A stretch of DNA of 54,461 nucleotides from Fidelibacterota bacterium (lineage in GTDB: Bacteria; Fidelibacterota; Marinisomatia; Marinisomatales; UBA1611). Positions within the stretch are counted from its first letter, which is position 1, and each line of letters starts with the position of its first letter. This document shows, one piece after another, positions 50,538 through 53,749 of this stretch. The stretch lies in contig JAOHKG010000004.1 of assembly GCA_028101095.1 (NCBI GenBank), forward strand, positions 1 through 54,461, given 5' to 3'. The notes under the pieces were generated by a model. That model worked only from the letters and a program-made list of their open reading frames with translations, did no database searches and was not told the DNA's origin. The translations under genes and the position numbers were made by a program.

Positions 50538-50653
50538 TAGTTGATATTTTTGTATATCCTCAAATTTACCACTTTATCAACCAATAATACAATAGTGAAA
50601 TGGTAAAGGGTTGATATTATGTTGTATATTCAGGTGAAATGAGAAATCAACAA
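50538..50653. repeat. Four 11-bp boxes at a 35-bp period in the divergent intergenic region
   Basis: TAGTTGATATT at 50538, TTTATCAACCA at 50573, GGGTTGATATT at 50608 and GAAATCAACAA at 50643. Confidence 0.7.
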
Positions 50654-50676
50654 CCAAAATAACAGAGGAAATAAAA

Positions 50677-50898
50677 ATGAAGAAACCAAAAAACATAAAT
50701 CCCTACATCGTGTATACACAAACATTAGTTGATATAATAAAAGAAATATCTGAACTCAATAAATCAAATAGTTCAGAACTAAATCATTATGTCGGTTCAG
50801 ATAAAATATATGATGATGGATTTTTCAATGGAGTGAATAAAATACTTTATCTAATAGTAAAACGACTTCACTTGTCCGTTGATAATGGAAAAATATAA
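50677..50898 (+). CDS. Hypothetical protein (alanine-free)
   Basis: 73-aa ORF with an AGAGG RBS. Confidence 0.55.
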   Translation: MKKPKNINPYIVYTQTLVDIIKEISELNKSNSSELNHYVGSDKIYDDGFFNGVNKILYLIVKRLHLSVDNGKI

Positions 50899-50956
50899 GA
50901 ATGGTGAATTGGGTTGATAAACTATCAAAACTGAAACTATGACAAAATATCAACTA
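50876..50956. repeat. Three 11-bp boxes at a 35-bp period
   Basis: CCGTTGATAAT at 50876, GGGTTGATAAA at 50911 and AATATCAACTA at 50946. Confidence 0.65.
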
Positions 50957-51082
50957 AAAGACAAACTCTATCGGAAATATTCTGGTATTTCAGAAATCAG
51001 ACCACTACTTATTACTGAAAGTGAGAGTGAATGAATATTGATGAAAGTAATTGGAAATATATATGGAAACAAAATGGGTAAT

Positions 51083-51174
51083 TGGTTGATAAAACTGGAT
51101 GTGTTTTTTTATTCAAGTTTATCAACCAAAAACAAAGTGGATAGAATGTAATTTGTTGATATTATGGATAAATT
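51083..51174 (+). repeat. Box module: inverted pair, third box and a -10-like hexamer
   Basis: TGGTTGATAAA at 51083, TTTATCAACCA at 51118, TTGTTGATATT at 51153 and TAAATT at 51169. Confidence 0.85.
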
Positions 51175-51186
51175 GAGGGGTATCAA

Positions 51187-51567
51187 ATGACAAGAAAACA
51201 AATAAATCAACAACTGAAAAACGGAGAAATAAAAATGGAATTATTATTTGAAAACAAGAACCAAATGGGTGGATATATTCATCAGAAGTACTCTGTAATA
51301 AACCAAGTTCAAAGTAGTATCAATGTTTTAGACCTTGGTGTTATACCACAAAAGAAAACTGAAGATGTGATTTTTGAAACTATTATTAGTGGTGTAAAAA
51401 AAGGTGACTTTCCAATAAGAGTTATTACTAACAATAATTCTGATAAGATTATTATCTTGAATAATGTTATGAAGAAGTTCAAGAAATTGAAAATGATGAG
51501 TCTTGATATCAACAACCCATTTACTTTTACGATTGTTCGTAAAGGTAGAGATTTATTGATGAAGTAA
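51187..51567 (+). CDS. Hypothetical protein (alanine-free)
   Basis: 126-aa ORF with a GAGGGG RBS. Confidence 0.65.
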   Translation: MTRKQINQQLKNGEIKMELLFENKNQMGGYIHQKYSVINQVQSSINVLDLGVIPQKKTEDVIFETIISGVKKGDFPIRVITNNNSDKIIILNNVMKKFKKLKMMSLDINNPFTFTIVRKGRDLLMK

Positions 51568-51575
51568 AATGAGAT

Positions 51576-51668
51576 TGGTTGATAAAGTGAGTTCGTTTTT
51601 TTTGTTCTACTTTATCAACCATAAACAAAGTAGATAGAATGTTTAGTGTAGACATTCAGAGTTAGATT
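51576..51668 (+). repeat. Box module: inverted pair, third box and a -10-like hexamer
   Basis: TGGTTGATAAA at 51576, TTTATCAACCA at 51611, GTGTAGACATT at 51646 and TAGATT at 51663. Confidence 0.85.
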
Positions 51669-51715
51669 TGAAAAGATAGAGAAATTATAAACAGAAACTA
51701 AAAAAGAGGTTACAA

Positions 51716-53650
51716 ATGAAAAGTAAACAGAATAATAAATACGAAATCGGAAAACCAGAGATGTCTTATAGTGATGTCATAATGTGGAATAAACAAAAGT
51801 TCAATAGACTTGGTTATGAAGATGACTTTCAATACAGAAGTAAGGATAAGAACAAATGGGGTGTTTCTACTTTCTTTCTGAAAGGTGGAAAGGGAAAGAA
51901 GGAGAAATTCTACAATGAGAAGGACTCAATTATAATGGACTATAAGTCAATTACAGATGTTAGTTCATTTTTAGTAAAAAGAAACCTTTTCAGAAAACAA
52001 GTAAACGATAAAAAGTTTGTTATCATTAGTCTACCAAAGTATGAGATGAAAGACTTATATCGGTTTGGACTTTTGTGGTTGTCAGATGGATATCACGATG
52101 AGAATGATTCATCAACTTGGTTTGGTAGTAATGGTTGGGATGAAAATAACGATGTAATAGAACACGGTAAGATAAAAGAGATAATCGGATATCTACCTAA
52201 CAAATTCCGTAATGGATTCTTTGATATAATGGATGGAAGATACTTTTTTATCATTCCTTCACAAGAGGTTGTTTATTCAACCGATTTTAGTCTGATGATG
52301 AATGTCAGAGGACAAGAAGGTGAGAATGATTCTTACAACAAAACAAGAGTAGAAGGATTCCTATCTACTTGGGTTGATGTTGAGGTTCCAGTTTCGGTTG
52401 ATGTAGATGATAAAGATTACAGAGTCATATCTGAAAAAATACATAACTACAGAAATGGAACTTCAAAGATTGAAGTCTCAATGTCTGAAATGTATAAGAG
52501 ATTGAGTAATCAAACTGGTGACTTTTATAATAGTAAGACGAGTGGTAAAGAATGGTTTGATGAGGATTTCAGAATGAAAGGACTCCAAAGTAAGTCTACA
52601 GGAAATCATATGATGAGTTCTTCAAATCCTGATTATAAGGGTGGTGTTGGAATATCAGAATCATTTACTGATAAATGGGATGGTTATGGAAAGTATACTC
52701 CACCTTTAGATGAATCTCTTGATATAGAAGATAATAAGAAAGTTGAAATGGTCTTGGATAGTCTTGATGAAAGAAGAAAAGAAGTTCAAAAAGGATTTCG
52801 GAAATGGAAAAAAGATACCAGTAAGAGACTTGATGAAATAATCAATCATCTCCAAGAAGGTAAGAAGTCTTTGTTGGAGAATTCTAAAGAGATTGATAAG
52901 GTTCTGAAGGAGAAGGTTGAGTATGATACTAACTTGAAACAATTTCGTGATTCTTGGGTGGAAGATAACCTTCCAAATTTTCAAGAAGGTTATAGAAATA
53001 GTTTACAAGTTCCTAATAAATACCAGGAGTTCACAAAGGACTTGATGGTTGGTAAATACAAACAAGATATTGGAATACTTACAATGTTGAGTGTTGATAC
53101 TTTGAAAAAAATGAGAACAAGTGGTTCACCATTCTTCAAAGACTTATTAGAATCTTCAACAATTGTAGATACCAGTAAGAGTAGGAATTATTACAAAGAC
53201 AAACTTCATTTATCCTATGGAAAAGAAGATAAAGTCAGTCAGATAATTTTTGGGGAGTTTTATGGTTTAGGTGATGAGGAAAGTTTAGTCTCAACACCTA
53301 ATGAAAAGAGACAAATGGATTATCTTCAATATGGAAGTAATGACTACATTGTTTTCTTTATTGAGAGGTTTGTAAAACTTGTTATCAAAGAATTAGAACT
53401 CTTTATAAGTAATAACAAACTGAAGAAGAATCACAACTTGTATAGGGATGAAATTGAAGATTTGAAGAACAAGTATCTACGAGATACTAATCACTTCTTG
53501 GACATTCCAATTCCTACTTTGGACAAAGAGAATGAGAATATGGAATTACTATCTTGGATGGATGATTTCTCTGATAAAGTAACTGATATGGTAGGAATAA
53601 AGAAGATAGAGATTCCAACTAAACCAAATCCATACAAGAAAGAAAAGTAA
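51716..53650 (+). CDS. Large hypothetical protein, 644 aa, with no Ala and no Cys
   Basis: Long ORF with an AGAGG RBS and a central coiled-coil-like segment. No family recognised. Confidence 0.85.
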   Translation: MKSKQNNKYEIGKPEMSYSDVIMWNKQKFNRLGYEDDFQYRSKDKNKWGVSTFFLKGGKGKKEKFYNEKDSIIMDYKSITDVSSFLVKRNLFRKQVNDKKFVIISLPKYEMKDLYRFGLLWLSDGYHDENDSSTWFGSNGWDENNDVIEHGKIKEIIGYLPNKFRNGFFDIMDGRYFFIIPSQEVVYSTDFSLMMNVRGQEGENDSYNKTRVEGFLSTWVDVEVPVSVDVDDKDYRVISEKIHNYRNGTSKIEVSMSEMYKRLSNQTGDFYNSKTSGKEWFDEDFRMKGLQSKSTGNHMMSSSNPDYKGGVGISESFTDKWDGYGKYTPPLDESLDIEDNKKVEMVLDSLDERRKEVQKGFRKWKKDTSKRLDEIINHLQEGKKSLLENSKEIDKVLKEKVEYDTNLKQFRDSWVEDNLPNFQEGYRNSLQVPNKYQEFTKDLMVGKYKQDIGILTMLSVDTLKKMRTSGSPFFKDLLESSTIVDTSKSRNYYKDKLHLSYGKEDKVSQIIFGEFYGLGDEESLVSTPNEKRQMDYLQYGSNDYIVFFIERFVKLVIKELELFISNNKLKKNHNLYRDEIEDLKNKYLRDTNHFLDIPIPTLDKENENMELLSWMDDFSDKVTDMVGIKKIEIPTKPNPYKKEK

Positions 53651-53656
53651 AATAAT

Positions 53657-53749
53657 TGGTTGATAAAATGGGATGAGTTTTTTTGTTCTGTTTTATCAAC
53701 CATAAACAAAGTGTATGAAATGATTTATGTAGATAAACAGACTTAGATT
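53657..53749 (+). repeat. Box module: inverted pair, third box and a -10-like hexamer
   Basis: TGGTTGATAAA at 53657, TTTATCAACCA at 53692, ATGTAGATAAA at 53727 and TAGATT at 53744. Confidence 0.85.

Follow-up and report, generated by a model that had tools for sequence, protein, structure and literature searches.

What uses a series of 11-bp boxes that recur at exactly 35 bp along the gene boundaries of a small integrative element in a Fidelibacterota bacterium? The question arises near the right end of a stretch of 54,461 nucleotides (GenBank assembly GCA_028101095.1, contig JAOHKG010000004.1), called the window here and meaning the whole stretch that was analysed, which makes up contig C34 in full, in a 1.22-Mb genome that is 60% complete. 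A first-pass annotation made from the letters alone had described five clusters of boxes between positions 50538 and 53749 and had proposed either regulated promoters of a private regulon, held by a multimeric DNA-binding protein, or 46-bp recombination sites that delimit gene cassettes. Follow-up by genome comparison, structure prediction and searches of metagenome contigs favoured the first idea. The boxes are probably double-stranded DNA operators of a protein of 223 amino acids (aa) that the element itself encodes, which would both bind them and exert control through them.

The box array

All 16 box starts listed in the annotation were read directly, and the core GTTGAT (or ATCAAC on the other strand) was exact in 14 of them. 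The two degenerate boxes, at 51646 (GTGTAGACATT, mismatched at 6 of 11 positions) and 53727 (ATGTAGATAAA, three mismatches), are both third boxes of their clusters. The exact 11-mer has 10 copies in the 1.22-Mb genome, seven of them within 50573–53702, and the remaining three are single copies within host coding sequence. A weight-matrix scan confined the motif to the element, with 0.76 matches per kb at 16 bits or more versus 0.008 per kb in the host, a comparison that is partly circular as the matrix was trained on these same sites. The 35-bp phase was confirmed as well: nine pairs of core boxes were found past position 50000, i.e. in the last 4.5 kb, versus one in the rest of the genome (about 1.2 Mb), and when the 22 boxes of that region were placed at random 20,000 times, no trial gave more than three pairs at 35 bp. 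The spacer was constant, with 24 nt in 11 of 11 cases. The box array is a real, non-random and element-specific set of binding-type sites.

Cluster c1 (50538–50653) occupies the divergent gap between the gene for the 223-aa protein and a 73-aa open reading frame (ORF). Its four boxes (50538 plus, 50573 minus, 50608 plus and 50643 minus) are accompanied by the −10-like hexamer TACAAT (50588–50593), by a minus-strand TATTAT, also −10-like, that was placed by eye at 50584–50589 or 50586–50591, and by TATATT (50625–50630). Cluster c2 (50876–50956) has boxes at 50876 (plus), 50911 (plus) and 50946 (minus). In c3 (51083–51174), an inverted pair (51083 plus, 51118 minus) surrounds a T7 tract, the third box is at 51153 (plus), and the hexamers are TAGAAT (51142–51147) and TAAATT (51169–51174). 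Cluster c4 (51576–51668) consists of an inverted pair (51576 plus, 51611 minus) and the degenerate third box at 51646, with TAGAAT at 51635–51640 and TAGATT at 51663–51668, and c5 (53657–53749) of an inverted pair (53657 plus, 53692 minus) and the weak third box at 53727, with TAGATT at 53744–53749. The orientation mostly alternates, as had been noted: plus-minus-plus-minus in c1, plus-plus-minus in c2, plus-minus-plus in c3, and plus-minus followed by a weak plus in c4 and c5. Three further details of the annotation were also found as described, namely a T7–8 tract plus a downstream AAACAAAGT in c3–c5, a TAnATT hexamer 5–6 nt past the third box in four clusters (c1, c3, c4 and c5), and inverted pairs that begin 6–12 nt past the stop codons of the 73-, 126- and 644-aa ORFs. 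A sixth pair of boxes, 36 bp apart, is located on contig C37 of the same genome between two recombinase genes.

The statement that the spacers vary in sequence was correct for c1 and c2 (unrelated, at most 13 of 24 positions identical) but not for c3–c5, which have homologous spacers (13–19 of 24 identical) and are copies of one module of approximately 95 bp. The phase of c3–c5 could therefore be inherited and not selected, and it is c1 and c2 that serve as independent witnesses of a spacing constraint, because their spacers are unrelated. A recently duplicated intergenic module without any site-specific function, its phase kept as indels have not yet arisen, would explain the 95 bp that c3–c5 have in common and the identity of 50140–54461 in the two copies of the element compared. 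This explanation is nevertheless very unlikely, as c1 and c2 hold the 24-nt spacing despite unrelated spacers, and a sister form of the box, spaced 35–36 bp in everted pairs, accompanies homologues of the 223-aa protein that are 38–44% identical.

The 223-aa protein and its relatives

The proposed box-binding regulator, a role assigned by prediction, is the 223-aa protein P0005, encoded at 49854–50525 on the minus strand. It had no match in Pfam or PHROGs and its family was not found in IMG/VR. The family is narrow, with 33 matches in a collection of 5.8 billion sequences and 23 representative clusters among 1.84 billion proteins, and it appears to be a protein family without described relatives.

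A profile search in 400 other genomes of the phylum identified true homologues in three of them (G241, G370 and G153); two further rows of the search (E of about 7e-4, covering 55–60 residues of much larger frames) were set aside. Comparison within the family covers these three distant loci, the other copies of the element that were read being near-identical to it. All three homologues adjoin pairs of a sister box with the core GGTGATA, which is GTTGATA in the present element. Everted pairs with 28–29 nt between the cores were counted across the whole genomes and amounted to two in G241, one in G370 and one in G153, all beside the homologue gene; inverted pairs of the sister box amounted to three, in G153 and again beside the gene. 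A control pattern read backwards gave no everted pair, and one inverted pair per strand in G153. Four of four homologue-bearing genomes, the present one included, have box pairs beside the gene, so that the sites and the regulator gene are inherited together while the core differs. The single feature common to all four is the everted pair formed by boxes 2 and 3, and this co-occurrence of protein family and box pairs is an observation, as are the phasing of the boxes and their confinement to the element.

The homologue was the only one of 18 element ORFs present in G241 and G370 by tblastn, and no further element gene, recombinases included, was found within 14–20 kb of it. As the homologue alone is shared, the boxes follow this protein and not the recombinases. 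The two orphan copies (L080, 16553–17304, in G241 and L082, 316–1038, in G370) are shortened to approximately 160 aa and have two flanking box pairs; they may be remnants kept for immunity.

The homologue in G153 is located on a contig (L081) that represents a related element, which has a helix-turn-helix (HTH) protein, a 136-aa protein and both recombinases in common with the element studied here. In L081, one layout is seen three times: the inverted pair abuts the preceding stop codon, the third box lies 36 bp beyond, and TTGTATATT comes next. In the present element, TTGTATATT also comes after box 3 of c1, and a near match to it lies ahead of the large recombinase gene of C37. TAnATT after the third box is kept in this distant relative.

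The AlphaFold model of the 223-aa protein (predicted local distance difference test, pLDDT, 68.8) comprises a helix (residues 28–92), a three-stranded sheet (100–125), a second helix (143–159) and a disordered basic tail, and the sheet-plus-helix domain modelled on its own reached a pLDDT of 74. Fold searches gave coiled-coil or noise-level matches, the best VIA-align Z being 4.6. Matches to the beta-beta-beta-alpha domain by an AP2 chain (Z 3.4), by chains of double-stranded RNA-binding domains (Z 3.1–3.6) and by HicB chains (within Z 3.1–3.6 as well) were also at noise level. Homodimer prediction yielded a score of 0.63 versus 0.01 for the best control, a mark that 20 of 30 proteins with a structure solved as a pair also attained, compared with 1 of 23 single-chain structures. 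In the homodimer runs, at least 57% of the contacts were in agreement, the pLDDT of the partner was at least 63, and the predicted contacts followed i + j of about 109 over residues 17–89. This pattern predicts an antiparallel coiled coil for the dimer, with its centre near residue 54. At 1.5 Å per residue the sheet domains would lie at opposite ends, some 110–112 Å apart, which corresponds to about 33 bp and is near the 35-bp phase.

Probable operators of the element's own regulator

In the proposed mechanism, the 223-aa dimer would act as a dumbbell, in which an antiparallel coiled coil of approximately 75 residues separates two heads by about 110 Å (about 33 bp). Each head would combine the small beta-beta-beta-alpha domain of one chain with the conserved N-terminal segment of its partner, so that a single dimer would span a pair of boxes at 35 bp. 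Boxes sit astride the −10-like hexamers that lie between the divergent regulator gene and the first gene of the rightward array, and further boxes precede the next rightward genes and lie between the two recombinase genes of C37. The protein would control its own gene plus each transcription unit of the element, most likely as an autoregulated repressor that silences the integrated element. The everted pair brackets an A/T-rich spacer with a −10-like hexamer (TAGAAT in c3 and c4, TACAAT and the minus-strand TATTAT in c1, TATAAT in L081), and whichever hexamer serves, protein on the boxes would mask either the start site or the −35 position. It is from this placement of hexamers between or after the boxes that the boxes are read as operators. 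The reading is also supported by the fact that the pairs of c1 and c2 would make weak RNA hairpins, yet the core is invariant in 14 of the 16 boxes. The earlier idea of a multimeric DNA-binding protein with a private regulon has thus gained from the box pairs beside the gene in four of four genomes, from predicted dimer ends about 33 bp apart and from the conservation of TAnATT; that the protein binds the boxes, in which direction it acts and where transcription begins is inferred.

Several points weigh against operator function. The protein has no Pfam match, and neither of its models, whole or domain, matches a known DNA-binding fold, the fold itself being silent on DNA binding. A rigid dimer could not bind inverted and everted pairs at equal spacing. 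The inverted pair in L081 is 25 bp apart versus 35 bp here, with a helix shorter by 10 residues (about 4 bp), so that the idea of a ruler would be right in direction and wrong in size. Within the array, c4 and c5 have degenerate third boxes, and shared descent of the 95-bp modules of c3–c5 could weaken the argument from spacing. Sense-strand G-U pairing of the c3–c5 spacers, described below, hints at a role as RNA. Promoter-like matches in the region were no commoner than in shuffles (27 versus a mean of 26.9). A host promoter consensus was not derivable, and in a crude test the Bacteroidota-type −7 motif TAnnTTTG was not enriched before host genes (40 sense, 52 antisense).

In the main alternative, the same protein and sites might work in the opposite sense, the protein being an activator that recruits RNA polymerase to promoters without a −35 element and sets off a timed cascade after induction. 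The third box ends 5–6 nt ahead of TAnATT and covers the −35 place, where no good −35 hexamer is seen, and the upstream inverted pair at about −59 and −94 resembles upstream activating sites. Activation is unlikely all the same, since box pairs lie over the −10-like region of the regulator's own gene in four of four genomes, and the persistence of the gene alone with its boxes in G241 and G370 suits an immunity repressor better.

A wider proposal builds on operator binding by the 223-aa protein. Its family might be an undescribed class of 'molecular rulers', in which a rigid coiled coil sets the distance between the heads and hence the 35-bp phase, or one of 25 bp, a helical turn less, with a shorter helix, and the pairs after stop codons double as a protein roadblock or as an RNA hairpin that insulates each gene of the satellite so that it can be switched separately. 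This proposal is tentative, and doubt about it outweighs confidence.

A possible role as RNA hairpins

The inverted pairs could instead act mainly as RNA, i.e. as post-stop hairpins on the sense strand that end, process (in an RNase III-type manner) or stabilise transcripts, the phase being stem plus loop length. The hairpins of c3–c5 start 6–8 nt past stop codons and fold with −18.3 to −22.8 kcal/mol (z −3.1 to −5.0), and they are stronger on the sense strand via G-U pairs. In c5, the sense-strand hairpin has 21 bp and −22.8 kcal/mol versus −11.2 kcal/mol on the opposite strand, its spacer pairing through G-U. Taken with L081, inverted pairs start 0–12 nt past stops, and the pairs of L081 fold too (z −2.9 to −4.5).

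The remaining evidence makes RNA as the main function quite improbable. An intrinsic terminator has a G+C-rich stem followed by a U-tract; at the boxes no U-tract follows the stems, where the sequence is A-rich, and a terminator scan found none there, its two terminator-like sites being at 51520 and 52267. Cluster c1 is located in a promoter gap and not behind a gene, and lone third boxes have no partner to pair with. Differences in the flanks of c1 and c2 are uncompensated, leaving stems of 7–8 bp with −6.4 to −7.1 kcal/mol, and the pair of boxes 3 and 4 in c1 is on a par with shuffled sequences (z 0.27). A stem would accept paired changes, yet the core is invariant, and no Rfam match was found. 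A second role of c3–c5 in transcript ending or processing is possible and would be compatible with operator function.

Junctions of the element and the recombination question

Attachment sites of large serine recombinases lie where element and host meet, around a central dinucleotide. The host gene glmS (47400–49241, plus strand; Pfam SIS and GATase domains) takes its last 12 nt or so, from about 49230, from the element. A metagenome contig (L014) equals window positions 49290–54461 at 99% identity and then spans a gap of 240 bp into C37, which encodes the far end of the element with an HTH_17 gene, a 265-aa serine recombinase and a 632-aa large serine recombinase. The short recombinase (L015, the 3786–4712 region of C37) is divergent from the large recombinase gene and its product is 21% identical to the large recombinase. 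Contigs of the sequencing runs X12 (labelled a viral metagenome) and X4 (labelled a microbial mat; cellular) fuse C37 positions 6632–6650, past the recombinase gene, to window position 49230. From these contigs, the left junction attL is placed at 49230–49231, with AC as the likely crossover dinucleotide; AC is common to both junctions (49230 and C37:6650), and the flanking arms form an imperfect inverted repeat, as would be expected of the attP of a serine recombinase. The last three codons of glmS (T-V-E-stop) are swapped by the element for synonymous ones, and the original end is found at C37:6651 onward. Judged by the assembled junctions, the element is approximately 12.1 kb long and is integrated into the last three codons of glmS. 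Run X12 contains the head-to-tail junction plus full cover of the element and no host junction, and the head-to-tail form would fit a circle, a tandem copy or a concatemer.

The 46-bp inverted pairs had been suggested as recombination sites that bound mobile cassettes, of an integron-like or serine-recombinase type. They are located at gene boundaries, C37 carries genes for two serine recombinases, and two pairs flank the small recombinase gene in L081. Yet the junction in use (49230 and C37:6650, with AC) carries no GTTGAT box. Gene gain, loss or shuffling at the boxes was looked for, and no joint at a box was seen among the contigs of four runs, which can miss rare forms; the two joints listed were unrelated. 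Gene content was uniform across the 18 runs that contain 0.83–0.98 of the sampled words. The box pairs in G241 and G370 had no recombinase match in 14–20 kb, and a Pfam scan of 19 ORFs from the element and its flank found serine recombinases only and no tyrosine integrase. The cassette idea is not supported by these comparisons, and a function of the boxes as recombination sites is extremely improbable.

The boxes could also serve other DNA transactions. Repeated short sites that flank an A/T tract could be iterons of a replication origin, partition sites or packaging sites. Cluster c5 is directly past the large 644-aa gene of unknown function, a position in which satellite origins are found. 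It is, however, highly improbable that the boxes serve in this way, as they form five or six scattered clusters, each just before a gene, and not one locus, and G241 and G370 retain pairs around the regulator gene alone.

Genes and variation of the element

No virion or structural genes were recognised among the 18 element ORFs scanned with Pfam and PHROGs. As a small integrative element that encodes an integrase and has no recognisable virion genes, it agrees in this respect with phage satellites of the PICI or VEIME type, which are packaged in particles of a helper phage, usually as concatemers. It looks like a phage satellite also because the head-to-tail junction was assembled in a viral metagenome.

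The left arm of the element contains a 106-aa ORF (49274–49594, plus strand) without a Pfam or PHROG match. The first-pass annotation had named its product as a second candidate for binding, and nothing was found that ties it to the boxes. All 52 differences between the window and L014 fall within 49292–50139, which takes in this ORF together with the 3' half of the gene for the 223-aa protein, and none fall in 50140–54461. X12 and X4 vary at the same positions of the left arm (49292–50139) as L014. This arm of 850 bp would be either a mosaic or fast-evolving.

Rightward of c1, the 73-aa ORF (50677–50898, plus strand) opens the array of rightward genes and has a single lone box at 50726. It is followed by a 126-aa ORF (51187–51567) and a 644-aa ORF (51716–53650), both on the plus strand and without a family match, and by a 115-aa ORF and the start of a 308-aa ORF (phrog_4776, function unknown) at 53796–54461, plus strand. 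A conserved block at 50975–51021 (plus strand) has two stretches of 17 nt that are identical in L081 (3225–3271, minus strand) around a variable 13 nt. It comes just after an inverted box pair in both elements, whose proteins are about 40% identical, and overlaps a possible micro-ORF (KYSGIS...LLITE).

One of the 18 sequencing runs mentioned above may be the source of this DNA. Short element contigs were also found in the RNA libraries X19 and X20 (50721–50985, 54063–54357, 49856–50572 and 50895–51149); these contigs are uninformative on strand, starts and transcription.

Upstream of glmS are host genes, with a ribosomal RNA operon at 28148–33255. Two 338-aa ORFs (6114–7130 and 10708–11724) have flanks around 6287 and 10881 that are identical over at least 80 bases; by their sequence they are a duplicated host gene in a run of very large ORFs. 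An empty glmS site was sought in a sister genome (G001), where the downstream flank was present and no glmS was found within 1.5 kb of it. The flank is preceded there (L085, positions 1–1500, from G001:C3) by unrelated DNA with a weak HTH-like match in place of glmS, and the locus may have undergone another insertion or a rearrangement.

Comparison with known systems

As a dispersed-operator regulon, the array would be of a known kind; its alternating geometry of 35 bp is unusual. In the immunity region of lambda-type phages (CI, with OR between PRM and PR), the regulator is likewise divergent from the early genes and several operators lie over back-to-back promoters, and the likeness implies autoregulation and cooperative binding as for CI. 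The boxes here are asymmetric 11-mers 35 bp apart, whereas the operators of lambda are 17-bp palindromes 20–24 bp apart, and unlike CI the 223-aa protein has no helix-turn-helix and is predicted to form a long antiparallel coiled-coil dimer. C1 of phage P1, with asymmetric operators scattered over the phage genome, and KorA/KorB of plasmid RK2 provide examples of one element-encoded protein with sites before many transcription units; they differ in that the present sites have a fixed 35-bp triplet phase and alternating orientation, and the protein is unrelated by sequence (no Pfam match).

Two other systems resemble the array in its placement. Promoter-early stem-loop (PeSL) cassettes of T4-type phages are also a repeated intergenic module, with a stem-loop after one gene and a promoter for the next. 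In contrast, the arms of the stem here consist of a conserved box of the kind that proteins bind, which is also found alone and in promoter gaps, and no shuffling was seen in the words of 18 runs or the contigs of four. Integron attC sites share imperfect inverted repeats directly past cassette ORFs, but the element has no IntI-type tyrosine integrase, its core does not fit GTTRRRY, and its boxes also stand singly and in promoter gaps.

Marine virion-encapsidated integrative elements (VEIMEs) have been described (PMC9618062). The present element fits them in its length of about 12 kb and in having a serine recombinase, an AlpA- or excisionase-like HTH gene and many ORFans. It also resembles them in having a head-to-tail junction in a viral metagenome, known here from assembled contigs. 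The passages considered name other hosts, SAR406 and Marinimicrobia occurring 0 times in the main text, and no helper phage is known for the present element.

Wider searches and significance

Searches beyond the phylum comparison returned little that resembles the element. The 644-aa protein had no match in phage records, IMG/VR, the 400 genomes of the phylum or species-representative genomes, and an Atlas search gave nothing usable. Element DNA compared with 60 related genomes gave chance matches of 26–34 bases only. The exact inverted pair was absent from IMG/VR, and the 50 matches there to a looser 8+8 pattern were all single pairs and were rejected, as was the one match to the sister pattern, a chance match on a contig of 21% G+C. 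Seven pattern matches came from species-representative genomes, of which five were Saprospiraceae palindromes built of tandem 10-bp GGTTGATAA units. In such palindromes on the Saprospiraceae contigs L017, L019 and L021–L023, with units of 9–10 bp, the word is that of the boxes and the architecture is another. A literature search for the box words returned only unrelated primer-type matches among those listed.

To our knowledge, mobile elements and regulators of uncultured SAR406/Marinimicrobia are almost unknown. Here, one element offers a complete and testable regulatory circuit together with a defined attachment site at the end of glmS. The 223-aa protein is a candidate for a new DNA-binding architecture, the geometry of which would be legible from the spacing of sites in the DNA, and the difference between GGTGATA in the relatives and GTTGATA in this element would represent a natural swap of specificity.

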